Below are positions 1-41,611 of a stretch of 41,611 bases of DNA, piece after piece; position 1 is the stretch's first letter; the number at the start of each line of letters is the position of its first letter. This DNA comes from a virus. Both the position numbers and the translations under genes were made by a program. The notes under the pieces were generated by a model. It was not told where the DNA came from. It saw only the letters and a program-made list of their open reading frames with translations, and ran no database searches. The stretch lies in UHGV virus genome UHGV-0389583; one strand, written 5' to 3'.

Positions 1-2248
1 TTTTTCCGTGTCCGACAGTAATAGGGAATATATCGGAATGTATGTTGATTTTGCGCAAAATGACAGCGCAGACCCGACAAAATACGCATGGAGTAAGATC
101 AAAGGCACAGACGGGGCGATCGGAACACCCGGAAAGCCGGGAGCTGATGGAAAGACCCCGTATCTACATATCGCCTACGCAAACAGTGCAGATGGCAAGA
201 CGGGATTTTCCACCACGGATGGTACAAATAAGCTCTATATCGGGCAGTATACAGATTATACACAGGCAGATAGTACAGATGCTACGAAATATACATGGAC
301 AAAGATCAAAGGCGAACAGGGGGAACGTGGTCCTCAGGGAGTCCCGGGTTTGCAGGGAATACAAGGTCCTAAAGGTGAACAGGGAATACAGGGACCTCAA
401 GGAAATACAGGTGCTACTGGACCGCAGGGACCAGCCGGACAGTCCACCTATTTTCATATTAAGTATTCCTCAGTTGCGAATCCTACCTCAAGTAGCCAGA
501 TGACGGAAACGCCGTCTACATACATTGGTACTTACGTAGATTTTACGCAAGCAGATAGCGAAGATCCAAAGAAATATGCCTGGTCACGCTTCCAGGGAGT
601 GCAAGGACCACAGGGAACGCAGGGGATTCCGGGGACAAATGGCGCAAACGGCAAGACAAGCTATCTTCACATTAAATATTCTAATGATGGAGGAAAAACG
701 TTTACCGGAAACAGCGGAGAAGATGTGGGAACGTATATCGGTACTTGTGTGGATTACAATCAGTCCGATCCTGCAAGTGTTGGATCTTATAAGTGGGCGA
801 AGATTAAAGGAGAACAAGGTGCGACAGGACCACAAGGGCCTGCGGGGTCATCTGGAAGAGGGATAAAAACTATTACGGAATATTATTTGATTTCTTCCAC
901 AAAAACAGGAATTACAACGGAGTTAAGCGGTTGGAGTACATCAATTCCTACGATGACAGCAACAAATAAATACTTGTGGAACTATGAAAAATTTACGTTT
1001 ACAGATAATACGACAGCGACCACTACACCAAAAATAATCGGGATATACGGAGACAAAGGAGCAACAGGAGCTACCGGTCCACAAGGACCTCAAGGAAATG
1101 CAGGTGCAACAGGTCCCAAGGGGCCACAAGGAGCGACTGGCCCGAAAGGACCGCAGGGGGCAACTGGTGCAACGGGACCACAAGGGGTAACTGGAAACGG
1201 AATAAAATCTATCACGAATTATTATCTTGCAACGGCAAGCGGAAGCGGTGTGTCGGCGTCCACATCAGGATGGACTACAACTGTACAAGCAATAACGGCG
1301 TCAAAAAAATATCTGTGGAATTATGAAGTTGTTACCTATACAAATGGTAGCACGTATCAATCAGCACCATGTATCATCGGAGCATATGGTGATAAGGGAG
1401 CGACCGGTGCTACAGGAGCAACAGGACCAAGTGGCATAATTGTATCTTCTACGGCTCCGTCAAATCCTAAAGTTGGCCAGTTATGGCAAACGGCATCCGG
1501 TCAGCCGATCAAGCGGTGGGATGGAAGTAGGTGGGTGATCCATTATATTTCTGTTGATAACTTAAACGCACAGACTTTAAGTGCGATAGCGGCAGATCTT
1601 GGAACTGTAACTGCCGGACTTATTAAGGATAAGAATGGAACAATGCTTATCGATGTTACATCCGGAAAGATTATTAGCAAGAAAATCGTGCAAGGAGCAG
1701 TGGAAAATGTTGCGTCATTGAGTAATGCGTATTTGGCTTTCTCCGGTAAGGCTCCGACAACAGATCGAGCTACTATGAGCGTGAACTTGCAAAACATCAT
1801 GTTTACAAATGAAAATACAAGAAAAGCAACGACAATCCAGTTTGAGGATGAAATGATATATGCAAGAAATTCTGTATCCCCACGTATAAGCATATATGCG
1901 TATCGCAATTACGATTCCGGCACCGTGAAAGGTCCATATACAAGTGCAAACTCCAATAATAACATCCGCGTGGAACTAAAAAGAAGAGGATTTATGGTAA
2001 CATGCAAGATCACAATGCTTGCACAATTTCCAGGAAGTGGCGAACACGGGCCATTCAACGAGGTGAAAATTCCAGTAGGATATCGACCGGTTGTGGATTT
2101 CTTTGCTCCCTATAGTGAAGTTGTAGGACCTAACATATTTGGAACGGGAAGATACGGCATAGGAAAAGATGGGGGGATCAAGATTTATGTGGAGAATGCC
2201 GCATGGACAGAACGTCACGCAGCGTTTACGTGGATTACAGATGATTGA
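1..2248 (+). CDS. Tail fiber / receptor-binding protein, C-terminal portion. 5' partial: the frame is open to the window edge and continues in frame from the ORF at the window end. Collagen-like GXY tracts alternate with repeated ~55-aa modules (xYxHIxYxxxxGxxF...YIGxYxDxxQxDSxDxxKYxWxKIKG) and a second repeated module (IKxITxYYL...KYLWNYE...[12 protein letters not shown]).
   Basis: Long ORF (track 8..2248, frame open from nt 2). Gly-X-Y runs and internally repeated modules are visible in the translation. Position is after Dit/Tal at the end of the tail module and before the lysis cassette. Confidence 0.7.
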
Positions 2249-2276
2249 TTAAAGGAGCAAATATGGAGATAAGAGC

Positions 2277-2299
2277 AAGACCCTCACGGTCTTATTTTT
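2277..2299 (+). terminator. Rho-independent terminator after the tail fiber gene
   Basis: Stem aagacc/ggtctt with a 5-nt loop, followed by atttttata. Confidence 0.45.
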
Positions 2300-2326
2300 A
2301 TACTTAAAAATAAATGGAGGAAATAC

Positions 2327-2608
2327 ATGACAGAAAATGAAGTAGAAGTGAAACTTGCAGAGCACGGAAAAGAAATCGGCTCTCTAAAACACCGGATGAA
2401 AGAAGCGGAGGACGTTGTTAATGTGGTACATCAACTGGCGCAAGAAATGGTAGGGTTGACCAAGGAGGTTGGCTTTATGAACCAGACCCTTGTGCAGTTG
2501 ACCGCAAAAGTTACACATCTTGAGCAGACTCCGGCTAAACGGTGGGACGTAGTAGTAACTGCACTGATCGGAGCTGTGATTGGTGGAATAGTAGCAATGT
2601 ATTTGTAA
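2327..2608 (+). CDS. XhlA-like lysis-associated membrane protein (coiled-coil N-terminus, single C-terminal TM helix)
   Basis: 93 aa; architecture typical of XhlA-family proteins that precede the holin in Firmicutes phage lysis cassettes; RBS aaatggagg. Confidence 0.5.
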   Translation: MTENEVEVKLAEHGKEIGSLKHRMKEAEDVVNVVHQLAQEMVGLTKEVGFMNQTLVQLTAKVTHLEQTPAKRWDVVVTALIGAVIGGIVAMYL

Positions 2609-2614
2609 AGGAGA

Positions 2615-2869
2615 ATGAAAATGAAGAAGATTAACTGGATTGTAAGAATTAAAAACAAGGCTTTTTGGGTGGCACTGATCCCAGCAATCTTACTGTTGAT
2701 ACAGGCAATTGCGGCAGTGTTTGGTCTTACCATCGACCTTGGAGACCTTGGAGATAAGTTATTGACTGTAATCAATGCACTCTTTGCGATTCTGGCGATC
2801 CTTGGTGTAGTGGTAGACCCAACAACACCTGGAACAAGAGATTCAGAGAGGGCACTTACATATAAATAG
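2615..2869 (+). CDS. Holin (two TM segments, charged C-terminus)
   Basis: 84 aa with two hydrophobic helices (ALIPAILLLIQAIAAVFG, LFAILAILGVVV); lies between the XhlA-like gene and the amidase. Confidence 0.6.
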   Translation: MKMKKINWIVRIKNKAFWVALIPAILLLIQAIAAVFGLTIDLGDLGDKLLTVINALFAILAILGVVVDPTTPGTRDSERALTYK

Positions 2870-2932
2870 ATTCAGGAGAGCTTGGAAACAGGCTCTCTTT
2901 TGTTGTGCGACGTCGCACGAGGAGGTGAGAAC

Positions 2933-3022
2933 ATGAGCGAACAGAACGAATTTGGCAGAGTATCCGTAGAGGAGCTGGAAAAAGCATTTGAAACAGAAGA
3001 GCAGGAGGAAGAGAAAGAATGA
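2933..3022 (+). CDS. Tiny acidic ORF (29 aa, MSEQNEFGRVSVEELEKAFETEEQEEEKE); stop overlaps the amidase start (ATGA)
   Basis: RBS gaggaggtgag upstream; below the ORF-track threshold; speculative. Confidence 0.25.
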   Translation: MSEQNEFGRVSVEELEKAFETEEQEEEKE

Positions 3023-3822
3023 AAATTGGCTTAAGGGGAGGGCATTCCCCGAATTGTAAAGGTGCAATAGGTCTGATCGATGAGCAGGCAGAAGTGCGGA
3101 AGATCTACAATGAGCTTGCACCAATGTTGCAGGCTGTCGGTCATACTGTGGTTGATTGTAATTCCAATGCATCCAATGTGTCCAGCGAGTTATCTGACGG
3201 AACAAATAAGGCGAATAGTGCGGGATGTGATATCTATGTCACCTTGCACATGAATGCGGCAGGAGCGGCGTCAGCTGGCGGTACAGAGGTGTGGTTATAC
3301 GATGCATCTAACCAGACAATGAACACAATCGCAAGCAACATCTGTAATAATTTTGCAGGAAAAGGATTTACTAACCGTGGTGTAAAGTACAGTTCGGGAT
3401 ACCATGATCTGAATGCATCTAATATGCCTGGCATGATCGTAGAGACATTATTTTGCACCGGCACAGATGATGTAGCACGGTATCGGAATTTAGGCACAAA
3501 AGGAATTGCTGAGCTGATTGCAAAGGCGATCGACAGTAGAGCGTCTGCGGGAAGTGGACAGGGAAATAATCAGAATACAGGAGATCGGGAAGGAGAAGAG
3601 ACTATGCAGTGTATGTTTACGGTAGAGGGAAAAGGATGTGTATATTGGTATCATGATGATAAGATTACGGCTTTGGGACATCCGGACGAAATGAAGATTC
3701 TGATGGATATTTACAAAGCGAACAATGGAAGAGATATGCCGTCTTATCATTGGACAAAAAAAGCGCCGTGGCACGCAAGATTGCTTGCGGTTCTGAACAG
3801 AAAACCATCTACGTCTATCTAA
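3019..3822 (+). CDS. Endolysin: N-acetylmuramoyl-L-alanine amidase (Amidase_3-like catalytic domain) with a C-terminal putative cell-wall-binding domain
   Basis: Motifs GGHS...DIYVTLHMNAAG...GTEVWLY resemble Amidase_3; last gene of the lysis cassette. Confidence 0.75.
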   Translation: MKIGLRGGHSPNCKGAIGLIDEQAEVRKIYNELAPMLQAVGHTVVDCNSNASNVSSELSDGTNKANSAGCDIYVTLHMNAAGAASAGGTEVWLYDASNQTMNTIASNICNNFAGKGFTNRGVKYSSGYHDLNASNMPGMIVETLFCTGTDDVARYRNLGTKGIAELIAKAIDSRASAGSGQGNNQNTGDREGEETMQCMFTVEGKGCVYWYHDDKITALGHPDEMKILMDIYKANNGRDMPSYHWTKKAPWHARLLAVLNRKPSTSI

Positions 3823-3827
3823 TAAAA

Positions 3828-3854
3828 TCCCCTCGGAGATTAGCTCTCTGAGGG
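3828..3854. terminator. Bidirectional hairpin terminator between the lysis module and the minus-strand moron cassette
   Basis: 11-bp stem cccctcggaga/tctctgagggg (one G-U pair) with loop ttagc; A/T-rich flanks on both sides. Confidence 0.45.
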
Positions 3855-4045
3855 GTGAAATTTCCACGCAATTACTACTAATGTATTTACACACCCGTAC
3901 AAATGTGGTATTATAAAACTGTCCAATACAGATGATGCTCTGTATTGCGGAGACTGAGCAAATCACAGTTTCGCGGATTGAAATATTAGAAGTAGCTTTA
4001 AATAGCTAAAAGATAGGGATAGGCTTAATGCTTATCCTTTTCTTT

Positions 4046-4249
4046 TTATCTGATCAATTCCCGTACATCGCATTCCAGCGCATCTGCCAGAGCAATTGCG
4101 TTCCTGAGCATCATTTTTCCGGTATCGTACTCTCCGTACTCGTATTTCTGTATCTGCCGAATGTTAATACCAGTCTTATTGGCAAGTTCTTGTTGCGTTA
4201 GCCCTGTAGCCTTTCTTAATCTTTGCACGCTGCTTAAATGTTCCCTCAT
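4046..4249 (-). CDS. Small HTH_XRE-family DNA-binding protein (67 aa from MREHLSSVQRL...)
   Basis: LTQQELANKTGINIRQIQKYEYGE is a classic XRE helix-turn-helix; start codon placed 1 nt after the stop of the upstream gene; RBS agaggggtg. Confidence 0.6.
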   Translation of the reverse strand: MREHLSSVQRLRKATGLTQQELANKTGINIRQIQKYEYGEYDTGKMMLRNAIALADALECDVRELIR

Positions 4250-4250
4250 T

Positions 4251-4544
4251 CTATTCACCCCTCTTTCTCCCATCACTATAGCAATCATAAAAACTATCTA
4301 CTAATTCGGCAATCTCTTCCGGTGATAACTTATCGGCGATTTCTTGCGGCACTCTATTATAATTTTCGGCAAACGTACAACCGTATTTTCCGATTTTAGA
4401 TAATTTCTTAACCATTTCCAGCTTATACATGCGTCCAAGCTCTTCAGTTGTAATTTCCCCAGATTTAACTGCCTCCCTTCCTTCTCTCGTTAAAATCTTC
4501 ATTGCTTCTTCTTTTTTAATTGTTCCGATTCCATTGATTTTCAT
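4251..4544 (-). CDS. Hypothetical protein (97 aa from MKINGIGTIKKEE...), second gene of the minus-strand moron cassette
   Basis: ORF with RBS gaaagaggtag 8 nt upstream of ATG. Its leader (gggagaaagagg...) is almost identical to the leader of the downstream HTH gene. Confidence 0.45.
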   Translation of the reverse strand: MKINGIGTIKKEEAMKILTREGREAVKSGEITTEELGRMYKLEMVKKLSKIGKYGCTFAENYNRVPQEIADKLSPEEIAELVDSFYDCYSDGRKRGE

Positions 4545-4622
4545 TTTTCTACCTCTTTCTCCCCGTAGCCGATAGGTCAGCATATACATCACTTGCGTCT
4601 TGCTACAATGTCTTTCTTGTAA

Positions 4623-5048
4623 TTATTTTCCGTAAACTTCACTTAAAATTCTTCTGCACATTGTATTGCGTTCGTGTTTAAGATCAAACATAAGTCTCTG
4701 GTAGTATTTCATGTAAGCTGTTTCATTGTTCCACTTCAGCAGATCAATTACGAGTCCGGCATCAGATTCGGAAAGGATTCTGTTGTATTCTTCCTTGCGA
4801 GATTCCCACATGCTCACGCTTTCCGGATATTTTGCCTTACACTCTGCGATCAGAGCATCAAACTGCTCGTTCATTTTTTTGATCAGATCGTTTGCAAAAC
4901 TGATCTGTTTCTCTGTTCCTGTCATTTTTGTTCCTCCCATTTTCGCTTCTTTCCATGCTTTCTTTAAAGCTTCGGAGATTCCGAAGGATGTTTTCTTTAC
5001 CAGTTCCCATGCTCTTTTCATAATTTTTGATAAGTTGTATTTTTTCAT
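4623..5048 (-). CDS. Hypothetical protein (141 aa), first gene of the minus-strand moron cassette
   Basis: ORF with RBS aaaggagat 8 nt upstream; no family recognised. Confidence 0.5.
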   Translation of the reverse strand: MKKYNLSKIMKRAWELVKKTSFGISEALKKAWKEAKMGGTKMTGTEKQISFANDLIKKMNEQFDALIAECKAKYPESVSMWESRKEEYNRILSESDAGLVIDLLKWNNETAYMKYYQRLMFDLKHERNTMCRRILSEVYGK

Positions 5049-5143
5049 TTTTCGTATCTCCTTTGCTTTATCTTATGGCCTTATTATACGTCTTATAAGG
5101 CGTAAAGTCAATAGGAAAATGAAAAGTTTTTAAAATATTTTTA

Positions 5144-5152
5144 TGATATAAT
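5144..5152 (+). promoter_or_regulatory. Extended -10 promoter element (TGaTATAAT) upstream of the small gene at 5175
   Basis: tgatataat at 5144..5152, about 20 nt upstream of the RBS ggagggg. Confidence 0.4.
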
Positions 5153-5174
5153 GGAATAAATGGAGGGGATAGAT

Positions 5175-5354
5175 ATGGAATATCAAATCTACGAATCTTA
5201 CGATACGTTTTTACTATATCAAGAATTTTTAGAGATACCCGGAAATTCTTTTAAATTCCGGCTGCCAGAAGGGATGATCCTGACAACCGAAATGATGCAC
5301 ACCTTTCTGCGTGCGGCGTATATGAGTGTTGGACGGATGGATCTGCCGTCCTGA
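5175..5354 (+). CDS. Small hypothetical protein (59 aa from MEYQIYESY...)
   Basis: ORF with RBS ggagggga 7 nt upstream and its own extended -10 promoter; divergent from the moron cassette. Confidence 0.4.
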   Translation: MEYQIYESYDTFLLYQEFLEIPGNSFKFRLPEGMILTTEMMHTFLRAAYMSVGRMDLPS

Positions 5355-5423
5355 ATATTGTATCATTTATTTTGTACTAATTATACTACTCCAAATGGGG
5401 TTGAATACTTAGTACAAAACAGA

Positions 5424-6818
5424 TTATAAAAAATCTACAGCCTTAATCGTATTGTCATCATTTAGGTAAATCTCCTGTATCGTTGATCTCCAAAAAGAAC
5501 GCTTGTTTTCCGGAGACAGCGAATCATACATCTGGCGAAAGTCAGTTTTTAATAGTTCTTCTACATAATGAAGGTTTCTCGTCTCTTCTTCCTCTGGAAA
5601 ATCAGCAGAAACGGAATATTCTTTCTCTAATCTTTGGTACTCCTTATCGTAGTAATCGAAAGAAATCCTCCCCTTTTGAAATAACAAATTTAATCGTTCC
5701 ATTTCTTTTCTCAGCTTTTCTGGATCTTTTGCTTTCTTTTGCTTTTTTAGCTCTTCACCGATCTGGTTGCTGCGTACTTTATACTTTTCGTATTCTCTTT
5801 CGAGATTTTCGAGCAAATATTTTTCGACAAGGTTTTGGCTTACCCTATGCCTATACGTGCAAATATGATCGATAAGTGCTCTATTGCAACGGTAGTAGCA
5901 GTACGTCCTTTTTTCACGTGTTTTACGATCTATAATTGATGAGCATCCGGTACCGACTAATTTCTGTCCGCATACAGGACAGCGCATCAAACCCGTAAAC
6001 AGGTATATTCTACCAGACGGCGTGTTTTTAATATTTCTTTTCGATATAATTTGCATCTCATTCCATTCTTTTTCTGACAGGTATGCTGGACAATAAGGGT
6101 ACCCTCTGTACGTTCCTTTATAAAATTCACTGGATAACATTGTCCGTAACATGCTATAGCTAAAATCAATCCCGTAGGTTTCCTGCATGTACCGGATAGC
6201 ACCTTTTTTGGTGTTATGGTTTTTAAAGTATCTAAAAAAATCTTCCACCATGTGTTCTGTTTCCGGATCTTTAACCATGCATTTCTTCCCATCTACAATT
6301 CCAGTTTTATACCCTAATGGCATATTTGCATCTCCAAATATTAACTTTTTCTGCCGTATAGATGATTCGTTTACAAATTTAATACGCTCCGATGTGGTAT
6401 CTACTTCATTTTGCCCGATTGAGAGTACTACATTTAACTGCAATCGTCCATCCCGCGTCTCCATGTTTATACCAGGTTCGGATACAGATATCCAGCGCAC
6501 CCCATGCTCATCAAGTACATCTTGTACCTTATAAAAGTCTGACAAGTTTCGGAACCATCTATCCAATCTCCAGAATAGTATTACATCAATTCTATCCATT
6601 TTCACGTCCTCTACAAGAGCATGTATGGCCTTTCTTTTCTTCAGTTCTTTTCTTGCAGTCTTTCCCTCATCCGCATAGACACTTACTATAGACATGTTGT
6701 TGTCTGTTGCGTATTGTTCCAAACATTCTTTCTGGGCTTGTAAAGACTTACCATGTACACTCTGCTCAAATGTGGATACTCGGATATATATGGCGCACCG
6801 TAGTATTTTTTCTGGCAT
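5424..6818 (-). CDS. Large serine recombinase (phage integrase): resolvase-type catalytic domain, recombinase domain, zinc ribbon, coiled coil
   Basis: N-terminus AIYIRVSTFEQ carries the catalytic Ser; CPVCGQKL...YYRCN zinc ribbon; 464 aa; RBS aaaggagag. Confidence 0.85.
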   Translation of the reverse strand: MPEKILRCAIYIRVSTFEQSVHGKSLQAQKECLEQYATDNNMSIVSVYADEGKTARKELKKRKAIHALVEDVKMDRIDVILFWRLDRWFRNLSDFYKVQDVLDEHGVRWISVSEPGINMETRDGRLQLNVVLSIGQNEVDTTSERIKFVNESSIRQKKLIFGDANMPLGYKTGIVDGKKCMVKDPETEHMVEDFFRYFKNHNTKKGAIRYMQETYGIDFSYSMLRTMLSSEFYKGTYRGYPYCPAYLSEKEWNEMQIISKRNIKNTPSGRIYLFTGLMRCPVCGQKLVGTGCSSIIDRKTREKRTYCYYRCNRALIDHICTYRHRVSQNLVEKYLLENLEREYEKYKVRSNQIGEELKKQKKAKDPEKLRKEMERLNLLFQKGRISFDYYDKEYQRLEKEYSVSADFPEEEETRNLHYVEELLKTDFRQMYDSLSPENKRSFWRSTIQEIYLNDDNTIKAVDFL

Positions 6819-6903
6819 TCCGTATCACTCTCCTTTTGTAAAATATATTTAAAATTGGTACAAAAATAACAGCCAGCGCAAAACAAACGTTCCGCTTGCG
6901 TAG

Positions 6904-6958
6904 CTGCTCCGAAGATGATACAATATTCTTGAGCTTACTATTGCATTCTTCGGAGCGA
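6904..6958. other. Candidate attP: imperfect inverted repeat ctgctccgaagatg ... cattcttcggagcg flanking a ~30-bp core, about 85 bp upstream of the integrase start
   Basis: Arms gctccgaaga (6906..6915) and tcttcggagc (6947..6956) are exact reverse complements; size and position are typical of serine-integrase attP sites. Confidence 0.25.
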
Positions 6959-7034
6959 TAGTCTTATGGTGAGATACCCGTATTGATTACGGGTGCAAGG
7001 CTCGTTGGTAGCGTGTCTTGCGACATTTCCGTCT

Positions 7035-7067
7035 CAGTGCTGGTAACACTGGGGCGGTTTTTGTTTT
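7035..7067 (+). terminator. Hairpin plus T-run (cagtg ctggtaa cactg gggcggtttttgtttt) in the int-upstream region
   Basis: Seen directly; function unclear because no plus-strand gene is upstream. Confidence 0.3.
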
Positions 7068-7147
7068 ATTATCCTAAAGAATCGAGAGAATTCATCAGGT
7101 CTTCCGTACTCATGCCGGCAGCAGAGTCAGTGTACTTTTTGACGCGG

Positions 7148-8113
7148 TTATATTATTTTAGCTCCTTTTTTACGGTTGCAACGCCAACAAAGAGTCTGAA
7201 GATTATCTTCTGTTGTCAGCCCACCTTTAGAAATTGGAACTATATGGTCTATCTCAAGCAGTAAATTTGGTTCTTTCTCTACGGATGCACCGCAGTTTTT
7301 GCATGTAAATTCATCACGTTCTTTAATTTTCTGTCTCAGCTTACTTGTCATGAGTGCTCGTTGGCCGGCTGCGCTTTTATTGAATTTTATTTTTTCCGAA
7401 AGAAATATCACAAAACGATTCAGATTATCAATATCCATCACAACATCGCACTGAGTAGAAGCATTTCCACCAGGGCTTACATATTTAAAAATATACTTCG
7501 GAAAATACGCAGTCCCCATATCAATTTCGTCAAACCCGAGTTCTCTTTCAAGCTTTGCTTTACCTATTTTCCTTATAAGTAAGGGAACTTCACTCTGAAT
7601 ACTTTCAATTATTCCGTTTTTTTCCGTTTTTAGTTTAGTTTTTCCCTCTTCAGCAGCTTCAAAATTATTCAGAATATTTTCGAAAGCAGACAAATTTTCT
7701 TCAGTCGCCTTTATTCCGAAATATTTACATATATACTCAAACGGCTTTTTCTTTGCATTATTGCACACAGTACGAGAGCAGTCGTGGATGTTCGGCAAAT
7801 ACTCCTGATTATTTAAGTGTTTCCGCTTGTAGTTCCATTTACTCCTATCTCTATAAAGCGCGTCGCCATAGTCTGTTTGGGTCGAAACAAGTTGTGTATG
7901 TTTCAGACGTTCGATATGACTGTTCAATTCATTGCAATCATTTATGTATGACTCTATTCTGTCTTTTATTTGTAAAAACTTTCCACTTTTATAATAAAAT
8001 AGTTCATACATTTTCCATGCAATAAAAATAAGCGCCAATACTACAAAAACAGGCCATATTTTAATTGCGACTCCAATAAGTATTAATACAATAATAAAAC
8101 CTATAAATTGCAT
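7148..8113 (-). CDS. Membrane-anchored HNH endonuclease-domain protein (two N-terminal TM helices, central unknown domain, C-terminal HNH)
   Basis: N-terminus MQFIGFIIVLILIGVAIKIWPVFVVLALIFIAW; C-terminus CKNCG...EIDHIVPISKGG...NLQTLCWRCNRKKG is a canonical HNH motif. Start moved to the ATG with RBS agagggag, because the track start is a TTG with no RBS. Confidence 0.6.
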   Translation of the reverse strand: MQFIGFIIVLILIGVAIKIWPVFVVLALIFIAWKMYELFYYKSGKFLQIKDRIESYINDCNELNSHIERLKHTQLVSTQTDYGDALYRDRSKWNYKRKHLNNQEYLPNIHDCSRTVCNNAKKKPFEYICKYFGIKATEENLSAFENILNNFEAAEEGKTKLKTEKNGIIESIQSEVPLLIRKIGKAKLERELGFDEIDMGTAYFPKYIFKYVSPGGNASTQCDVVMDIDNLNRFVIFLSEKIKFNKSAAGQRALMTSKLRQKIKERDEFTCKNCGASVEKEPNLLLEIDHIVPISKGGLTTEDNLQTLCWRCNRKKGAKII

Positions 8114-8319
8114 TAGTCTCCCTCTTTTCTCCTGTACTTTTTCCCACAATTTATATATAAACGCCGAAGCGGTTATACCATATTAAATTAAAATCTGCCA
8201 TCAAGTCCTATAAAATATTAGAACAAATGTTCGAATAAATATTGATTTTTGTTCTCCCTGATAGTATTATATTACTAGGGATTTCGAACAAGTGTTTTTG
8301 CAGTTAGGGGGATGGCAAA

Positions 8320-8421
8320 ATGGATTACAAAAGCAAAATTATCGAACTTATCAACGGTATAAGTAATACTGCAAAATTAGAGTATCTTTATTATGTGATA
8401 AGATCGTTTCTTAAAGGGTAG
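8320..8421 (+). CDS. Tiny ORF (33 aa, MDYKSKIIELINGISNTAKLEYLYYVIRSFLKG)
   Basis: RBS ttaggggga upstream; the terminator follows immediately; speculative. Confidence 0.2.
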   Translation: MDYKSKIIELINGISNTAKLEYLYYVIRSFLKG

Positions 8422-8440
8422 GCTATTGCTTACCCTTTTT
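8414..8440. terminator. Bidirectional terminator between the tiny ORF and the 3' end of the repressor gene
   Basis: Stem aagggta/taccctt followed by ttttt. Confidence 0.45.
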
Positions 8441-8767
8441 AGAAAGCGATTCGATAAGATGCTTTATGGCTTTCTTGTCGGATTCGTCTAAAGAATAGTA
8501 ACAAGATATCATATTAATAATCTCTTGATCTTTCATTATCCGTCCAACTAATGTTCCACTTTCCTCTCTGGAATAATTTCCAAAAAAGTCGTTTGGTATC
8601 ATTTCAAGCACTTCACATAATCTTTCTATAGTATCAGCGTCTGGTTTATTCTTGTTGTTTTCCCAATCGCTTATTGAATTATGTTTTGCACCTATTAAAT
8701 TCGCAAGTTCTTTTTGAGTCATGTTTTTCTTTTTTCTGTATTCTTTTATTTTCTCTCCTAAACTCAT
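8423..8767 (-). CDS. CI-like lysogeny repressor (HTH_XRE N-terminal domain plus C-terminal domain)
   Basis: MSLGEKIKEYRKKKNMTQKELANLIGAKHNSISDWENNK; divergent from the cro-like gene; RBS aaggagg 8 nt upstream of ATG at 8767. Confidence 0.7.
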   Translation of the reverse strand: MSLGEKIKEYRKKKNMTQKELANLIGAKHNSISDWENNKNKPDADTIERLCEVLEMIPNDFFGNYSREESGTLVGRIMKDQEIINMISCYYSLDESDKKAIKHLIESLSKKGKQ

Positions 8768-8828
8768 TATGTTTCCTCCTTGCATCTTCTATATTAACAC
8801 ATGGAAATTATATTTTCAATAAAAAAAG

Positions 8829-8904: not shown

Positions 8905-8926
8905 AAATGAAAGAGGTGATTACAGA

Positions 8927-9130: not shown

Positions 9131-9141
9131 AGGAGAATCAA

Positions 9142-14698: not shown

Positions 14699-14700
14699 AT

Positions 14701-33368: not shown

Positions 33369-33469
33369 TAGGAACCCGCTTCATGGAAGCACAGCCATAT
33401 ATGAAGCCTGCATTTGAGGAGCAGAAGAAACAGTTTGAAAAAGATTTACAAAAGCTTGTGAGGTGAGAC

Positions 33470-33853
33470 ATGGATCCACAGCAAGAATTATTTACAGAAT
33501 TACTTACAGAGATCAAAGCATTAGGATGTGACGTATATGATGGCTTCTTACCGCCGGATGGTACGCCGTATCCTTTTGTTTATCTCGCAGATAGCCAACA
33601 GTCAGATGATGCCAATAAAACGGCTGTGTTTGGCAATGTGTATCAGACAATTCATGTCTGGCACAACAATCCAAGACAGAGGGGAACGGTGTCAAAAATG
33701 CTGCTGGCGATCAAAAGCGCATGCAGAAGACTGGATCATACCGAAAATTTTGCATGGAATGTCCGGAATGTAAACCAGAGGATACTTCCGGATACAACAA
33801 CAAAACAACCTTTATTGCACGGGGTGTTGGAAATTGAATTTAAGTTTAGTTAA
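33470..33853 (+). CDS. Tail component / tail completion protein
   Basis: 127 aa between the head-tail joining genes and the major tail protein. Confidence 0.45.
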   Translation: MDPQQELFTELLTEIKALGCDVYDGFLPPDGTPYPFVYLADSQQSDDANKTAVFGNVYQTIHVWHNNPRQRGTVSKMLLAIKSACRRLDHTENFAWNVRNVNQRILPDTTTKQPLLHGVLEIEFKFS

Positions 33854-33870
33854 CAGAGAGGAGAAAAAGC

Positions 33871-34398
33871 ATGTTTGAGACAGGATTACAGTTATTTGCA
33901 GAGGCGGTATCTGGCAAGAAAATTGTATATTTGTACCGCCTTGCAGAAAAAGCGAAACAGGAAGCAGCAAAGAATCTTGCGTTTACAACGGAGAATGGAA
34001 GAACCAAGAGTAAGGATGCAGATTCTACTGCAACGAAAGACGGTACAATCCGTACACCAGGAGCTGCGGAGACAGAAATTACAGCCACTGCGGTTTTGGC
34101 AAAAGGCGATAAATTGATCACAGAACTTGAGGACGCTATGGATTCCGATAAACTTCTTGAAATTTGGGAAGTAAACCTTGAAGAAGCAGCGGAAGCGGGT
34201 CCGAATAAATTTAAGGGAATGTATTTCCAAGGATATCTCACAGAAGTTGAGGTCACGTCTTCTGCAGATGAGAATGTGGAAGTATCCCTTACTTTTGGCA
34301 TCAACGGATCAGGTAAACGCGGAGATGTAACCGTGACAACGCAGCAGCAGGAAATCGCGAATTACGTGTTTAAGGACAGCGTGAAAGAGGGGGAATAA
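33871..34398 (+). CDS. Major tail (tube) protein with N-terminal Prp-type motif MFETGLQLFA-EA
   Basis: 175 aa immediately upstream of the tail chaperones and tape measure; RBS agaggagaaaaagc. Confidence 0.65.
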   Translation: MFETGLQLFAEAVSGKKIVYLYRLAEKAKQEAAKNLAFTTENGRTKSKDADSTATKDGTIRTPGAAETEITATAVLAKGDKLITELEDAMDSDKLLEIWEVNLEEAAEAGPNKFKGMYFQGYLTEVEVTSSADENVEVSLTFGINGSGKRGDVTVTTQQQEIANYVFKDSVKEGE

Positions 34399-34466
34399 TG
34401 CCCTCTGACGATGTAGCCTTAATCGGCAGAGGTAAAGTAGGAAAGGCAAAAGTAGGAAAAGAATAG
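34389..34466 (+). other. Second copy of the putative -1 frameshift cassette, at the major tail gene 3' end. GGGGG run, 7-nt spacer, stem ccctctg/cagagg with compensatory changes relative to copy 1, loop gcctt, downstream aaggc. The -1 frame encodes ...GIMPSDDVALIGRGKVGKAKVGKE; the ATG at 34398 overlaps the stop (TAATG)
   Basis: Read directly; peptide conserved with copy 1 and showing several synonymous third-position differences. Confidence 0.4.
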
Positions 34467-34520
34467 ATCATGTACATAGAGGGCGGCAAGACCGCTCTCT
34501 TTTTAATGGAGGAATAAAAA

Positions 34521-34919
34521 ATGATGGAATTAACAATTAACGGACAGGTGTACCAGTTTAACTTTGGAATGGGATTTTTGAGAGAGATAAACAAGCAGAC
34601 AAATGTGCCGATAGATGGAGCACCTGGAGTTAAAAAAGATGTGGGGTTCCGGTACGCGCTTATGAATTTGATGGATGGAGATCCAGAAGCTCTTGTGAAT
34701 ATTCTTGATGTTGCGAATAAAGGGCAGAACCCAAGAGTAACAAGAAATCTGCTCGATGGTTATATCGATGACGAGAATACAGATATCGATGAGCTTACAG
34801 ATACAGTAATGGGTTTCTTAAAGAGTGCGAATGCTACGAAGAGGACGACGAAAGAGTTGGTGGATGCTGTGGAGAAAGAGAAACAGAGGATAGAAGAGGA
34901 AGAAGCACGGAAAAGATAG
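34521..34919 (+). CDS. Tail assembly chaperone (gpG-like)
   Basis: Position immediately upstream of the tape measure; acidic C-terminus. Confidence 0.5.
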   Translation: MMELTINGQVYQFNFGMGFLREINKQTNVPIDGAPGVKKDVGFRYALMNLMDGDPEALVNILDVANKGQNPRVTRNLLDGYIDDENTDIDELTDTVMGFLKSANATKRTTKELVDAVEKEKQRIEEEEARKR

Positions 34920-34960
34920 TTGATGGTGTAGGGTTTGAAGAATACTACAAAGAAGCAGCT

Positions 34961-35269
34961 TTGAATTGTTTTCGGTATCTGGGTTTCAAGAGCTTTGAAG
35001 AAGTGGACAGGTTGACGATCCCGGAATACACCCTGCTTATGGAAGCTGTGCAGCTAAGAGAAGTAGATAAGGACTATCGAAATCATCTGCAGGCATTCTT
35101 AAATTTTGCTGTAAAAGCAGAGAAAAAGGTTGGAAAGAATAGGTCGAAACCAGTGTATCAGAGATTCAGAAAATTCTTTGATTACGAAAAAGAAGTAGAT
35201 CGTGTGAGGAACCGAAAGCAAAAAAATGAAAGATTGGACATAATCGGCAGAATGATGAAAGGAGAGTGA
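34961..35269 (+). CDS. Tail assembly chaperone T-like segment, in the -1 frame relative to the G gene; may be expressed as a G-T frameshift fusion
   Basis: The frame is open upstream back into the G-gene 3' end; the ORF-track start is a TTG; no canonical slippery heptamer identified. Confidence 0.4.
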   Translation: MNCFRYLGFKSFEEVDRLTIPEYTLLMEAVQLREVDKDYRNHLQAFLNFAVKAEKKVGKNRSKPVYQRFRKFFDYEKEVDRVRNRKQKNERLDIIGRMMKGE

Positions 35270-35273
35270 TGGC

Positions 35274-38200
35274 ATGGCAGAAAGTTTTTCCGTGAAGGCA
35301 ATATTGTCTGCACAGGATAAGGGATTTACGTCTGCTTTCAAATCCGCAATGGGTACCGTAAGCAATTTAAAAAGCACGCTCACGAGTGGAATCGGATTTG
35401 GAATCATGGCCGGAATTGGACAAAAGGCATTTGGTGCTGTCACATCCAGTATTGGTGGTATGGTGTCAGAGTTAAATTCTTCCAGCGCTGCATGGAAAAC
35501 ATTTAATGGAAACATGTCGATGGTTGGAAAAGGTGCTGACGAGATTGCATCTGTAAAAAAGGAATTGCAAGAGTTTGCAGAAGATACGATTTATAGTGCA
35601 TCTGATATGGCGAGTACTTATGCTCAGTTGAGTGCAGTTGGGATTAAAAGCACGAACAAGCTTGTAAAGGGATTCGGAGGGCTTGCTGCGGCGGCTGAGA
35701 ATCCAAAACAGGCAATGAAGACTTTAAGCCAGCAGGCTACACAGATGGCAGCAAAGCCAACAGTTGCATGGGCGGACTTTAAACTCATGATTGAGCAGAC
35801 TCCGGCTGGTATATCAGCAGTCGCAAAAGAAATGGGTATGACTACCACGGAGCTTGTACAGAATGTGCAGGACGGGAAAATCGCGACAGAAGATTTCTTC
35901 GATGCTATCGCAAAAGTCGGCACAAATGACGCGTTTACGAAGCTTGCAACAGAATATAAGACCGTAGATCAGGCGATGGACGGGTTGACTGAAACAGTAA
36001 GTAATAAACTTGCGCCATCATTCGATGTTTTATCTGGCCGAGCAATTAAGTCCTTGGACGGGATAATCAATAAAATTGGAGATCTTGATGGAGATGCAAT
36101 CGCAGGGAAATTAACTGGATTTCTCGATAAAGCAAGTGGATACTGGAATGTTTTAAAGACAGAGGTTTCCGAAATAAAGGCTGCTTTTGGAGATGCCTTT
36201 TCTGCAATCGGAGAAGATTTGGGGAAGATTACTGGTGCATTTGGCTCCACGGAAAGCATCAGTTCTTTTGCTGGTGTAATGGACTCTGCGAGTGGGGCAT
36301 TGCAAACATTTGCCGGATTCCTGAAAGAACATTCGGAGACCATCGCGAAAGTGATATCAAAACTCCCACAGCTTTTCGTTGCATATAAAGGCTTTAAGAT
36401 TGCGAAAAGTGTTGCTCCATTTGTAGGCACATTCACGAGTGCAATTGCCGGCCTTGCCGGAGCTGGAATAAGTAAAATCGCTGGGAAATTATTCGGAATT
36501 TCCAAAGGACAGAGAGCAGTTGAGGTATCGAGCAAGACGAGCGTAAAAGGAGTAACCTCTTTAAAAGAAGGCTTTAATTCACTTCAAAAAAGTGCTGGTA
36601 TTGCCTTAATAGTAAGCGCCTTAGCTGGTTTTGCACTTGCGGTAAAACCGCTGGCAGAATTAGGAACAACCGCTGTTGCTCCGCTTGCTGCATTCGGAGT
36701 TGTTGTCGGTGGTTTAGCAATCATACTTGGAACTATGGGAAAGAAACTGCAGGAAAGTGCAGTTGGCATTGCGGTGTTTGCTGGTGCGGTATCAGCAATG
36801 GCATTATCCATGACACCTCTTGCTAAAACTGGTACAGACGGAGCTGTTGCAATGGGAACATTCGGAGTTGTTATCGGTGGTTTGGTTGCAGTATTTGCGG
36901 TATTTGGGACGGCTCTGACAGCTGCTATACCAGCGATGCTTGCTTTCGGCGCAACCATCCTTATGGTTGGTGCTGGAATGTCTCTGGCAACGCCTTTTGT
37001 TGAAGCACTAGGAAGCGTAATTCAAATACTTGGAGATGTTGTTGTTCAAGTAATAGGGGTAATCACTGGTGCTATCGTAGCTATCTTCCCAGTATTCGGA
37101 AATTTTGTGTCAACTGTTTCTGATTCAGTTAGCCAAATAGTATCAGTTGTTGGCAATACACTTGTAAATATTTTTAAAACTGCCGGGGACATCATTACAG
37201 GTGTTATTGATTCATTAGGGGATGGGTTTAAAAAAGTCACAGACGGGATTTCGAAAGTTATAGATTCAATTAGTGGTGGATTTTCCAGTGTTTTGGATTC
37301 TGTTGCTGGAATCATTGACTCAATCGGAAACTCTGCCAAAAATGCTGGCAAAGGATTCGAGAGCGTAGCTGACGGTATCAACACGATTGCTAGTCTATCT
37401 ATTGTAGATATAGCAAAGGCACTCGGATCGGTAGCTATTGGTCTCGGAGAAATTTCTGCAAAAGGAAAAGGAATTGGTACCGTTGCAGATGGACTTAACG
37501 GAGTTATTGGAGCAATTACAATTGCATCGGTGCAGATTTCAATGTTTTCAGGAACTCTTACGCAACTAAATTCAACGGCCGTTCAAATTCCTACTAGCAT
37601 GGCTATGATTAGCGGAGCATTAGCAAGTTTTTCAATTCCTGTTATAGATACTGGCAGTATCATGGCAGCATTTGCTTCTATTAGTGCAGGTGCGGAAGCG
37701 CTGGTAGCACAACTGGATTCTTCGGCCGCGAAAGCCGGGGCGCAATTTTCAAAAGCGCTTACTAACGGTATGAATTCAGCTGCTAATTCCGTGCAGCGTG
37801 GTGTTTCTAAAATTACGTCATCTGCTAATAAACTTATTTCAATGCTGACGAATATTGCAACGCAGGCAATGAGCCAATTTAATTCCGCTCTATCCTCCGG
37901 TGCAAGTAGGGCAACTTCTACGGCGAGATCAATGTCAACGTCCATTTTGTCAGCACTTAACAGCACTTCATCTGGTGCTTATTCTTGCGGCGTGTATATT
38001 GGACAGGGACTTGCAAAAGGCATGGCATCTACACTTGGATATATCAGATCAGTTGCAGCGCAAATGGCTGCGGCTGCAGATGCGGCAGTCAGGGCAAAAG
38101 CGAAAATTCACAGTCCTTCAAGAGTATTTGCCGGGCTGGGTGTCTATGTAGGAGAGGGATTTGCACTTGGAATTGAGTCGATGTCCAGAAAGGTTGCAGA

Positions 38201-38447
38201 AGCTACGCAGAGCATTGTGGAGATCCCAACATTATACACAGATATGAGGATGCGAGCTTCAGGTGCTTTGGATTCTGAACTTTCCGGTGATTATTCCTAT
38301 AACAGAAATGTTACATACACAATCGTTGTGCCGGTTGAATATAACGGCAGAGAAGCAGCGCGTGTTACGGCGGAATTTACGCAGAAAGATCTGGAAAGAC
38401 GTGAGAGCATGAAGATGAGACTGAAAGGAGAAAGAAGCCATGTATGA
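35274..38447 (+). CDS. Tail tape measure protein
   Basis: 1057 aa, Ala/Gly-rich with repeated helical and TM segments; RBS aaaggagag. Confidence 0.85.
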   Translation: MAESFSVKAILSAQDKGFTSAFKSAMGTVSNLKSTLTSGIGFGIMAGIGQKAFGAVTSSIGGMVSELNSSSAAWKTFNGNMSMVGKGADEIASVKKELQEFAEDTIYSASDMASTYAQLSAVGIKSTNKLVKGFGGLAAAAENPKQAMKTLSQQATQMAAKPTVAWADFKLMIEQTPAGISAVAKEMGMTTTELVQNVQDGKIATEDFFDAIAKVGTNDAFTKLATEYKTVDQAMDGLTETVSNKLAPSFDVLSGRAIKSLDGIINKIGDLDGDAIAGKLTGFLDKASGYWNVLKTEVSEIKAAFGDAFSAIGEDLGKITGAFGSTESISSFAGVMDSASGALQTFAGFLKEHSETIAKVISKLPQLFVAYKGFKIAKSVAPFVGTFTSAIAGLAGAGISKIAGKLFGISKGQRAVEVSSKTSVKGVTSLKEGFNSLQKSAGIALIVSALAGFALAVKPLAELGTTAVAPLAAFGVVVGGLAIILGTMGKKLQESAVGIAVFAGAVSAMALSMTPLAKTGTDGAVAMGTFGVVIGGLVAVFAVFGTALTAAIPAMLAFGATILMVGAGMSLATPFVEALGSVIQILGDVVVQVIGVITGAIVAIFPVFGNFVSTVSDSVSQIVSVVGNTLVNIFKTAGDIITGVIDSLGDGFKKVTDGISKVIDSISGGFSSVLDSVAGIIDSIGNSAKNAGKGFESVADGINTIASLSIVDIAKALGSVAIGLGEISAKGKGIGTVADGLNGVIGAITIASVQISMFSGTLTQLNSTAVQIPTSMAMISGALASFSIPVIDTGSIMAAFASISAGAEALVAQLDSSAAKAGAQFSKALTNGMNSAANSVQRGVSKITSSANKLISMLTNIATQAMSQFNSALSSGASRATSTARSMSTSILSALNSTSSGAYSCGVYIGQGLAKGMASTLGYIRSVAAQMAAAADAAVRAKAKIHSPSRVFAGLGVYVGEGFALGIESMSRKVAEATQSIVEIPTLYTDMRMRASGALDSELSGDYSYNRNVTYTIVVPVEYNGREAARVTAEFTQKDLERRESMKMRLKGERSHV

Positions 38448-39972
38448 GTTTGTGGATACAAATAAGGCGGGGAGCAAGAGTTCCCTGCCGAGTGAGGCTC
38501 TGCAGATTGATGGGACATATATTGAAAATTTGATTGATGGATACAGAACTCTGTACGTGACCGGTCGTGAGCTTTTGGGATCGGAAATTTCGGAGAGAGA
38601 AATTGATCTTGTGGATGGGTCCGAGTATACGGGAAAGCGAGATACAACCAGAAGTATTACAGTTGGATACCAGTTGCTTTGCACATCTCCTAGAGAGTTT
38701 CAGGAAAAATTCAACAAACTCTCTGGAATCTTAAATAAGGAACAGGCAAAGCTGATTTTTGCAGATGAACCGGATAAATATTTTATCGGGACGAAATCAA
38801 GTGTAGGAGATGTGGAGCCAGGCAGATTGAACGTAAAAAGCGAATTTACTTTTTATTGTTGTGATCCACGGAAATATTCAGCAGCGGAAAAATCGTTTAC
38901 TGCCCATCAGGAAAGCGGATATCAGACGCTTACTATTGTAAATGGTGGTACAGAATCCGTTCCGGTAAGCTACGATATCACTCACAACCATGAAAATGGA
39001 TTTATTGGGATTGCCAGTAAATACGGTGCAATACAACTCGGCAAGATCGAAGAAGCAGACGGCGAAGACTATAAGGCGTCAGAGATACTGTCAGAGGGGT
39101 ATAGCCTGTTTCAAGACGATCACGGTACTTCTCATCAAAATCCGGAGAATACCACACAAGGAACGCTGGAAGTGCGGGACGTTGCCGGATACAGCGTAAT
39201 GGCTTTAAAGGGTGGGCAGGCTACGAACGGACACTGGAACGGCGGAATGAGAACACTTACTATCCCGGTTGACAGCGAGGGCAGACGTGGGGCAAAGAAC
39301 TTTTACTGTTACACGCAGCACTGGTTCGAGACTGGATTGATGGGACAGACGGGAGCACAGACTATTGCGTTTCTTACAGGGGAAAATGAAGTGATCTGCT
39401 CTATGTCTATTAACAAGAGTGATACGGTTGGTAATACGGCGCATGTGGACTGGTTCGCACCACAAAACAAGAAGATCAAGACACTGGATTTCCAGCCGAC
39501 AGCTTATGAGGGAAACCCGTTTAATTTAAAGATGGGTGGCGGTCATAATGATTTTTTAAAAGAGGGTGACAGGCTACGGATTTTTTGGTACGGTCAGTAT
39601 TATTATTTTACTATCCCGGAGATTAAAGACATGGCGTGTGAGAAGATACAGGTCTGGATCGGGCAGTGGGGAGACCGGAATCTCGGGAATCAGCTGGTTA
39701 CGCATAACTATCTTAAAAAAATCTGGTTCCGCAAAGATAACGTGGAAAAATACAGAGATGTGCCGAACCGGTATAAGTCCGGAGATGTGGTCTATATTGA
39801 TGGAAATGATACAGCGGTTTATGTAAACGGGATGAAGCGGATGGAAGATGAAATCCGAGGAAGTAAGCATTTTCTGGTACCGCCGGGAGAGACGGAGATC
39901 CAGTTCTCCTACTCGGCATTTAGCAGTCCGCCGCCAACGATTAAAGCAAAAATAAGGGAGGCATATTTATAA
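38440..39972 (+). CDS. Distal tail protein (Dit) with C-terminal extension
   Basis: 510 aa following the tape measure; N-terminal domain typical of siphovirus Dit. Confidence 0.7.
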   Translation: MYEFVDTNKAGSKSSLPSEALQIDGTYIENLIDGYRTLYVTGRELLGSEISEREIDLVDGSEYTGKRDTTRSITVGYQLLCTSPREFQEKFNKLSGILNKEQAKLIFADEPDKYFIGTKSSVGDVEPGRLNVKSEFTFYCCDPRKYSAAEKSFTAHQESGYQTLTIVNGGTESVPVSYDITHNHENGFIGIASKYGAIQLGKIEEADGEDYKASEILSEGYSLFQDDHGTSHQNPENTTQGTLEVRDVAGYSVMALKGGQATNGHWNGGMRTLTIPVDSEGRRGAKNFYCYTQHWFETGLMGQTGAQTIAFLTGENEVICSMSINKSDTVGNTAHVDWFAPQNKKIKTLDFQPTAYEGNPFNLKMGGGHNDFLKEGDRLRIFWYGQYYYFTIPEIKDMACEKIQVWIGQWGDRNLGNQLVTHNYLKKIWFRKDNVEKYRDVPNRYKSGDVVYIDGNDTAVYVNGMKRMEDEIRGSKHFLVPPGETEIQFSYSAFSSPPPTIKAKIREAYL

Positions 39973-41611
39973 TGAATGAAATCAGAATTGCCGTACTGAA
40001 TCCACATGACAGGGTGCTTGCATTTTTGGATAACACCCATCGAAACTCTATGCATTATTGGAACGATGAGCTCCATGAATATCTGCAGGGGACAGCGAAT
40101 ACATACGCATTTACGGTAAGTTCCAAACACGAGGATGCGGCGTATATCGTAGAAGGGAATAAAGTAGCCTTTGTATATAACGGAAAAGACTACTATCTGA
40201 ATATCGTACATGTGGAAAAGGATGAATTTACAGTTACTGCGACAGCATGGTCTTTAAGTTTCGAATTGATCAATGAGAATGTGGGTGCGTACAAATCTGA
40301 AAGCGCAATGAGCTTTGAGGAATATGTAACTGCCTTTGATCCGGAACGTACCGTGCGGATCGGGATCAATGAAGTGTCAGATAAGCGGATTTCAAACGAA
40401 TGGACAGGTGAGGCAACGGTACTGTCCCGTTTATTTTCCGTGGCGAATGTATTCGATGCGGAGATTGAGTTCCAGACTGTGTTAAATGATGATTATTCAC
40501 TGAAAGAAATTGTAATGAACGTGTATCGGGAACACTCAGACAATAACACGGGAGTTGGGGAGTTCCGGGGAGATATCAAACTGCGGTACGGGAAAAATGT
40601 TACCGGCATCCGGAAGGAATCCAGTATCGAAAATCTGTACACCGGTATCCGTCCAACAGGAAAGGATGGACTGACTATACAGGGAATTGAGAAAGAAGAG
40701 CTGGATGAGAACGGCGTAGTAGAGTTTTATACACAAGGTCCAGATATCCGGGCGCCGCAGGCAAGGGACAGATTTCCATCAAACCTGATAAACAAGGAAG
40801 ATGGATACATCTTTATGCCAAAATCCTACGATACGGATAACAAAGACAAACTGTACAGTATGGCGCTATCGGACTTGAGAACAGCATCTGAACCGGTCGT
40901 GACTTATGATGTGACGGGATACTTTGATACCGCTATCGGAGATACCGTGGAGATCGAAGATGAGGAGTACGTTCCTACCTTATACTTGAGTGCAAGAGTA
41001 TCGGAGCAGGTTCGCAGTTTCACGAATCCGCAAGCAAACAAGACAGTCTTTACCAATTTTAAAGAGCTGCAGTCGGAAATCTCGGAAGATTTGCTGCAGA
41101 AAGTAGAGGATCTGATTAACAAAACAAAGATTTACACCTGCTCCATTGCCACAAACAACGGCATCATCTTTAAAAATGGTATCGGCAGCACTACTCTGAC
41201 AGCTTACGCTTACGATAACGGCGTGGACGTCACGGGCAATCTGGAAATCCGGTGGAGTAAAGATGGGACAGAGTTTTACGTTGGCAAGAGTGTTACGGTA
41301 AATGCTACGGACGTGGATACAAAGGCGGTGTACTCATTTGAGGCTCTAGAAAATGGGATAAAACGTGGGTATTACGAGGTCACAATCACGGATGTAATGG
41401 ATGGAGAGGATGGAAAAGACGGGGAACAGGGTCCGCAAGGTGAGAAAGGAGAGCAAGGCGAACAGGGACCTCCGGGTCCACAAGGCGCTCCGGGATTGGA
41501 TGGTATACAGGGTCCAAAAGGGGATCAGGGAATTCCGGGAAAAGATGGGAAGGACGGAAAAACACAGTACACCCACATTGCTTATGCAAACAGCGCAGAC
41601 GGTAGGACAGA
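39972..41611 (+). CDS. Tail-associated protein (Tal, prophage-tail N-terminal domain) fused to the collagen-repeat fibre. 3' partial: continues in frame into the ORF at the window start
   Basis: Follows Dit; C-terminal GEQGPQGEKGEQGEQGPPGPQGAPG...[15 protein letters not shown] repeats the module seen at the window start. Confidence 0.75.
   Translation, partial: MNEIRIAVLNPHDRVLAFLDNTHRNSMHYWNDELHEYLQGTANTYAFTVSSKHEDAAYIVEGNKVAFVYNGKDYYLNIVHVEKDEFTVTATAWSLSFELINENVGAYKSESAMSFEEYVTAFDPERTVRIGINEVSDKRISNEWTGEATVLSRLFSVANVFDAEIEFQTVLNDDYSLKEIVMNVYREHSDNNTGVGEFRGDIKLRYGKNVTGIRKESSIENLYTGIRPTGKDGLTIQGIEKEELDENGVVEFYTQGPDIRAPQARDRFPSNLINKEDGYIFMPKSYDTDNKDKLYSMALSDLRTASEPVVTYDVTGYFDTAIGDTVEIEDEEYVPTLYLSARVSEQVRSFTNPQANKTVFTNFKELQSEISEDLLQKVEDLINKTKIYTCSIATNNGIIFKNGIGSTTLTAYAYDNGVDVTGNLEIRWSKDGTEFYVGKSVTVNATDVDTKAVYSFEALENGIKRGYYEVTITDVMDGEDGKDGEQGPQGEKGEQGEQGPPGPQGAPGLDGIQGPKGDQGIPGKDGKDGKTQYTHIAYANSADGRT

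Follow-up and report, generated by a model that had tools for sequence, protein, structure and literature searches.

A viral contig very probably representing one circular unit of a temperate siphovirus related to Ruminococcus gnavus phages

The closest described relatives of the sequence studied here are temperate siphophages of Ruminococcus gnavus, a gut species associated with inflammatory bowel disease for which few phages have been characterised. They include phiRg507T2_3, phiRg507T2_2 and phiRgIBDN1 (MT980836-41), with genomes of 36.5-37.8 kb (Buttimer et al., Gut Microbes 2023, PMC10072058). A later library of R. gnavus phages is reported to consist of genomes that all assemble into circles and mostly encode serine-type integrases, with fibre and Dit genes common to different clusters (PMC13435783). 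The virus genome UHGV-0389583 (the window, i.e. the whole stretch of 41,611 bp that was analysed) is larger at 41.6 kb, or 40.3 kb without the insertion sequence (IS) that it carries. With a probability of about 93%, the window is exactly one unit of a circularly closed temperate siphovirus sequence, the host being Mediterraneibacter (Ruminococcus) gnavus or another, closely related member of the Lachnospiraceae. It would be in the excised form, which bears the phage attachment site (attP), and linearised at an arbitrary point in the Tal/tail-fibre gene; an opening inside this gene is an ordinary result of linearising circular contigs. An earlier note, made from the sequence alone, had proposed a complete circular genome whose ends meet in the fibre gene. 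The mapped attP and its bacterial counterpart (attB), the mosaic ancestry and a tail-completion gene split by the IS are additions to that note.

Junction of the window ends and the fibre gene

The final open reading frame (ORF) starts with ATG at 39972 and remains open through 41611, where two bases (GA) are left over. Together with the T at nt 1 these give GAT, followed by TTT TCC GTG in the same frame as the ORF at 8..2248, as the earlier note had read it. The joined ORF (39972..41611 plus 1..2248) has 3888 nt and encodes 1295 aa followed by a single stop, in agreement with the single Tal/fibre gene of about 1296 codons that had been proposed; both remaining frames contain stops at the junction. 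Four modules of about 51 aa were found in the joined fibre (residues 532-582, 600-651, 696-746 and 767-817), and the junction falls at residue 547 within module 1, with 15 residues before and 36 after. The earlier observation that the junction rebuilds an internal repeat module, with three more downstream, was thus reproduced. Module 1 is 64.7% identical to module 2 and 37-45% to modules 3 and 4, and collagen-like G-X-Y runs lie between the four. PHROG fibre profiles cross residue 547 in one stretch, with phrog_588 covering residues 15-654. The 5' part also gave a weak Prophage_tail match and a Collagen match; the 3' part also contains two GIKxI modules of about 73 aa, collagen runs and a C-terminal domain of about 270 aa.

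The same adjacency was found in other assemblies. A query spanning the junction gave single-piece matches in tail-fibre genes of cultured R. gnavus phages and in one virome contig. The Logan contig ERR8081760_12 (27,079 bp) follows the window from 23339 through 41611 and 1 to 8806 at 100.000% identity with 0 gaps, and the 1295-aa gene product called on it equals the joined ORF residue for residue. Scaffold_1210 of the ENA assembly ERZ28598358 also extends across the join at 100% identity, matching positions 40786 to 41611 and 1 to 5396. Among the relatives, phiRg507T2_3 (MT980837) aligned without gaps at 97.2% over 600 nt centred on the join, and the virome contig MT836489 from Mexico gave an ungapped alignment of 3594 nt at 95.6%, from 38433 across the join to 415. 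The end of the window is therefore adjacent to its start in two gap-free assemblies at 100% and in two gap-free relatives at 95-97%, an agreement well beyond chance, and contigs that run beyond the window end continue with the window start, which bears out the proposed circular genome. Moreover, fibres of prophage relatives in bacterial contigs of 85-618 kb are contiguous and aligned over residues 1-1295 at 86-94%. The identical junction was located solely by exact-protein look-ups in ENA and Logan assemblies; the exact junction 50-mer had 0 matches in IMG/VR and 0 in JGI metagenome contigs. These alignments show that base 41611 directly precedes base 1 in the physical molecule, and that nothing is lost or doubled between them. 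The self-comparison of the window ends that the earlier note had suggested revealed no terminal direct repeat of 8 nt or more.

Fibre length among close relatives was 1022-1674 aa, with 48-77 G-X-Y triplets; one of the relatives was without YxHIxY modules, and another without GIKxI modules. Since fibre lengths and modules differ among the relatives, the repeat region of the fibre is a hotspot of variation.

The remainder of the window is also consistent with a single unit. Each of the temperate-siphovirus modules (lysis, lysogeny, replication, packaging, head and tail) is present once, and the self-BLAST of the window showed no internal duplication. Followed once round the circle, the gene order is colinear with that of phiRg507T2_3, whose record is complete and circular. 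Domain and profile annotation of the window proteins revealed no host genes. The earlier claim that the gene complement is complete exactly once therefore holds for the modules; it does not hold for the tail-completion gene, which is split by an IS630-family element that had gone unnoticed.

Attachment site, packaging and the insertion sequence

The integrase of the window scored above the cut-off for Resolvase (91 bits) and Zn_ribbon_recom (33.8 bits), and below it for Recombinase (16.8 bits). With an N-terminal resolvase, a recombinase and a zinc-ribbon domain in 464 aa, it fits the large serine recombinases (about 450-700 aa). The identical protein occurs at the prophage/host boundary in at least ten bacterial contigs, including one of NCBI GCA_026804945.1. 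In lysogen contigs with this integrase (L005 and L011), the sequence agrees with the window at 99.97-99.98% identity between 16817 and 5389, and it passes into host DNA at 5389, which is 35 bp beyond the integrase stop. The host genes past this point encode an NMT1-like binding protein, a DUF975 protein, an ABC transporter and a xanthine-dehydrogenase-like protein; whereas the window and ERR8081760_12 continue with phage cargo and lysis genes. Uninterrupted orthologous host genes read GGATTTGGAGCCGACAAAAC at the matching codons G-F-G-A-D-K; therefore the core shared by attP and attB is the 8-bp CTCCAAAT (5389..5396), and integration splits a coding sequence. The attB lies within the gene of an NMT1-like substrate-binding lipoprotein, into which the phage would integrate through its large serine recombinase. 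Phage DNA lies on both sides of the core in the window, and host DNA replaces one side in the lysogens; the window is the excised, attP-bearing form of the phage and not the prophage. The earlier note had named host genes beyond the window ends as evidence that would contradict a circle. Host DNA was met at the internal attP (5389), and not at the ends.

The exact attP 50-mer was also found in two IMG/VR viral contigs. In ERZ28598358 the phage is present in two scaffolds, one starting at 5389 and the other ending at 5396, and their other ends lie within the IS. The break at the core might represent a branch of the assembly graph between integrated and excised forms. The second prophage junction (attL) was not recovered by a search with the 59-aa gene next to attP, because this search gave phages with other integrases and attachment sites. 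Some of these phages have their attachment sites next to fragments of a Mn-catalase gene (L019, 6239..6490; L022, 6272..6490), so a Mn-catalase gene may be the target of a different integrase type in these related phages. An exact 28-mer of the host flank had 0 matches in GTDB representative genomes. In a protein scan with the host NMT1-like fragment, the orthologues among the matches listed (Mediterraneibacter, Faecalimonas and other Lachnospiraceae) had at most 84% identity. The empty attB of the true host was obtained neither from the 28-mer search nor from the matches listed in the protein scan.

The packaging genes resemble those of headful packagers. The TerL matched TIGR01547 (PBSX family) with 164 bits (curated cut-off 105), and the portal matched portal_SPP1 with 379 bits (curated cut-off 166). 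The TerS is related to PDB 3ZQP/3ZQQ (E=1.4e-6), which we take to be the small terminase of the SPP1-like phage SF6; the TerL is related to the 'Gene 2 protein' of 4IFE/4IDH (E=3e-7), presumably the large terminase of Shigella phage Sf6. By homology, the terminase and the portal fall in clades of known headful packagers. The earlier suggestion of headful (pac) packaging from TerL is supported at the level of homology by these matches together with the Mu-F-like protein. Since the related terminases and portal belong to headful packagers, circularly permuted and terminally redundant virion DNA is plausibly the likeliest physical form. Packaging by a headful terminase of the PBSX/SPP1 type would yield such DNA and thereby account for the circular closure of the assembly.

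The insertion in the tail-completion gene has the features of the IS630 family. Its transposase matched NF033545 with 228 bits (cut-off 100), and its ends are imperfect inverted repeats beginning GTATA, between CTAG sequences in which the TA is duplicated. Ten further copies, 99.5-99.7% identical, were found in unrelated chromosomal and mobile-element contexts, and all copies with readable flanks (six at both ends and three at one end) are bounded by CTAG. In-silico removal of 1270 bp restores an ORF of 111 aa, which is identical to the protein of five intact relatives. The gene is intact in all ten prophage relatives examined and in MT835606, where it encodes 127 aa. ERR8081760 and ERZ28598358 carry this insertion at 100% identity, and ERR12815843 has the same truncated ORF; a 36-mer of the left IS junction had 0 matches in IMG/VR, so the window is not itself an IMG/VR contig. 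The insertion is recent and cuts 31 of the 111 codons off the HK97-gp10-like gene. The function of the truncated protein is likely lost; this is not certain, because the retained 80 residues span positions 8-76 of the 78-position Pfam model HK97-gp10_like. The IS-bearing copy may thus be able to excise and replicate but need help to form infectious particles.

Alternative explanations

It is possible, at odds clearly below even, that the circle is not virion DNA but comes from a prophage which the IS630 element has rendered defective and which has excised and is replicating. The attP form would then arise because excision and replication need no structural genes, or because a related co-resident phage supplies the missing protein. 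This explanation is favoured by the loss of 31 codons from a gene that is intact in all other relatives examined, and by the occurrence of the insertion in further assemblies, which fits vertical inheritance in a lysogen lineage. The two scaffolds of ERZ28598358 that stop exactly at the attP core are also expected if integrated and excised forms coexist. However, the truncated protein may still work, given the span of the Pfam model that it retains. Moreover, the explanation concerns the physical source only and is compatible with the window as a complete circular unit. As a further and rather doubtful extension, the IS-bearing phage, which has lost the C-terminal 28% of its tail-completion protein, might persist, unchanged at 100% identity, in two or more human-gut samples and form the attP circle nonetheless; either the truncated protein suffices, or the defective phage borrows the protein from related co-resident prophages, as an early form of helper dependence.

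Two other explanations concern the unit itself. The break lies inside a repetitive gene whose length varies widely among relatives, and repeated fibre modules or collagen-like repeats could have led to a false circularisation, in which case the true gene would have another number of modules or the window would be an incomplete linear fragment. This is very improbable. At the DNA level the repeats of the fibre gene are weak (75.6% over 86 nt at best, and none exact at the window ends), the identical 1295-aa gene is contiguous in two other assemblies, and the relatives with four YxHIxY and two GIKxI modules align end to end with the joined fibre. That identical integrases occur in many lysogen contigs might be taken to indicate an integrated prophage cut from a bacterial chromosome, or one copy of a tandem array; we give hardly any credence to this, since the phage/host boundary of the lysogens is at 5389 and not at the window ends, the attP has phage DNA on both sides, and the window is free of host genes. 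A tandem array would leave the unit sequence unchanged. Several points weigh against the reading of the window as one complete circular unit of an R. gnavus-type phage. Identity with other assemblies is the sole ground for the circular closure, and one of these assemblies is possibly from the window's own sample. Headful packaging is argued from homology, the IS-split tail-completion gene speaks against this exact sequence coming from infectious virions, and the host assignment is weakened by the attB gene, whose best orthologues among the matches listed (species-representative genomes) are only 84% identical.

With the single-unit reading preferred, the two terminal partial ORFs should be merged as one host-recognition fibre of 1295 aa. 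The contig can be used as a complete genome (41,611 bp, or 40,341 bp without the IS) in excised form, with the attP mapped and a serine integrase present. Because the IS splits the tail-completion gene, 'complete' may not mean viable; a closed circular assembly is no guarantee of a viable phage.

Gene content and comparison with known phages

The features of the window are collected in Table 1. Between the lysis genes and attP lies a cargo (moron-like) region, whose genes gave generic helix-turn-helix (HTH) matches only in PADLOC and Pfam; its 59-aa gene is also present in phages with other integrases. The region 2327..2869 matched the PHROG families phrog_937 and phrog_10091. The HNH endonuclease stands beside this integrase in all ten lysogen contigs read, and PADLOC showed it to be weakly similar to restriction, PtuB and ZorE HNH domains.

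Table 1. Features of the window UHGV-0389583 in order of position, beginning with the 3' part of the fibre gene.
Feature	Position	Strand	Remarks
3' part of Tal/tail-fibre gene	1..2248	+	last base of codon 547 to stop; rest of module 1, modules 2-4
93-aa protein	2327..2608	+	sole PHROG match is a family labelled hemolysin
Holin	2615..2869	+	Phage_holin_1
Endolysin, N-acetylmuramoyl-L-alanine amidase	3019..3822	+	Amidase_3, 82 bits
Cargo (moron-like) region	4046..5354	mixed	lysis genes to attP
HTH_3 protein	4046..4249	-	cargo
97-aa protein	4251..4544	-	cargo
141-aa protein	4623..5048	-	cargo
59-aa protein	5175..5354	+	cargo
attP	5370..5419	none	11-bp perfect inverted arms TTTTGTACTAA (5370..5380) and TTAGTACAAAA (5409..5419), 28-bp centre
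Large serine recombinase (integrase), 464 aa	5424..6818	-	Resolvase, Zn_ribbon_recom, weak Recombinase
HNH endonuclease, 333 aa	7148..8149	-	lysogeny module, between integrase and CI-like repressor
CI-like repressor	8423..8785	-	genetic switch
Cro-like HTH	within 8801..9130	+	genetic switch
pRha anti-repressor	9142..9918	+	genetic switch
Early and replication module	11534..18694	+	
AntA anti-repressor	11534..12295	+	
ERF	14695..15426	+	
SSB	15408..15839	+	
ERCC4 nuclease	15842..16354	+	
Primase Zn-ribbon protein	16275..16838	+	
Primase/helicase	16760..18694	+	
Sigma/RinA-like late transcriptional activator	22878..23300	+	phrog_36
tRNA-Asn (GTT)	23660..23734	+	only tRNA upstream of TerS
TerS	23883..24464	+	Terminase_2
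TerL, PBSX family	24439..25707	+	TIGR01547
Portal, SPP1-type	25709..27067	+	portal_SPP1
Mu-F-like minor head protein	27030..28319	+	
Prp-like cysteine peptidase	28925..29212	+	head module
Scaffold	29296..29871	+	
Major head protein	29843..30802	+	
Head fibre, 109 aa	30893..31222	+	short collagen-like stretch
Head-tail adaptor	31237..31563	+	
Minor head/connector protein	31560..31874	+	
Truncated HK97-gp10-like tail-completion gene	31861..32106	+	80 native codons, then Val and stop from IS
IS630-family element, 1268 bp	32101..33368	+	inserted at CTAG, TA duplicated
DDE transposase, 388 aa	32174..33340	+	DDE_3; NF033545
Orphaned 3' remnant of HK97-gp10-like gene	33371..33466	+	31 codons
Tail terminator	33470..33853	+	
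Major tail protein	33871..34398	+	
Tail assembly chaperones	34521..34919 and 34961..35269	+	
Tape measure	35274..38447	+	
Dit	38440..39972	+	
5' part of Tal/tail-fibre gene	39972..41611	+	codons 1-546 plus 2 nt; Tal-like N-terminus, first collagen-like run

Comparison with phiRg507T2_3 showed that about 47% of window positions 1..25000 aligned, at about 93% nucleotide identity. These alignments lie in the fibre gene (middle and 3' part), the holins, the switch region, the ERF/SSB/nuclease/primase/helicase genes, the late genes and the tRNA-Asn. Identity is about 89-97% in the early, lysis and fibre regions, the genes follow one another round the circle in the same order, and the phiRg fibres have the same YxHIxY...KYxWxKIKG modules. 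The packaging, head and tail genes are different: the window has a PBSX-type TerL, an SPP1 portal and a Mu-F-like protein; whereas the phiRg phages have a bIL285-like terminase. Over the packaging/head/tail module (23883..39972) the identity to phiRg507T2_3 is patchy, at 76-78% nucleotide identity at most. The integrases also differ, with a serine recombinase of 464 aa in the window and an integrase of 384 aa in phiRg507T2_3. A megablast search lists the integrase gp21 of phiRg507T2_3 under a joined match; however, the blastn segments showed no alignment over window positions 5352..7061. At the place where phiRg507T2_3 has tRNA-Ala and tRNA-Asn, the window has tRNA-Asn only, and the IS630 insertion is a further difference from the phiRg phages. 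With about 47% of 1..25000 and about 14% of 20001..41611 aligned to phiRg507T2_3, the window falls short of the high nucleotide identity over most of the genome that would place it with the phiRg phages at genus or species level. By these nucleotide comparisons, it is related to the R. gnavus temperate siphophages as a mosaic and is not the same species. In it, an SPP1/PBSX-type packaging and head module is combined with early, lysis and fibre genes of the phiRg type. The sequence enlarges, by one mosaic relative, the small group of characterised R. gnavus phages.

The contigs MT835606 and MT836489 from the Mexico human-gut virome (UNVERIFIED Bacteriophage sp.) are 94-96% identical to the window. 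They are fragments of 25.5 and 10.1 kb, respectively, and the shared parts are the packaging-to-Dit module and the stretch of Dit, fibre, lysis and integrase genes. The packaging/head/tail module of the window is 94-96% identical to MT835606, which has no IS; MT836489 crosses the window join without gaps.

The packaging set of the window is of the same kind as in the headful (pac) siphoviruses of Firmicutes of the SPP1/SF6 type. Common to both are a Terminase_2 TerS (related to SF6 G1P), a PBSX-family TerL, an SPP1 Gp6-like portal and a Mu-F/gp7-like protein; however, the sequence homology is distant, and the window phage is temperate. Phages of the phiC31, A118 and SPbeta type use large serine recombinases to integrate inside host genes. 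The window phage shares with them the Resolvase, Recombinase and Zn-ribbon domains, an attB inside a coding sequence, and an attP of about 50 bp whose inverted arms enclose a very short core common to attB; whereas its target is the gene of an NMT1-like substrate-binding lipoprotein.

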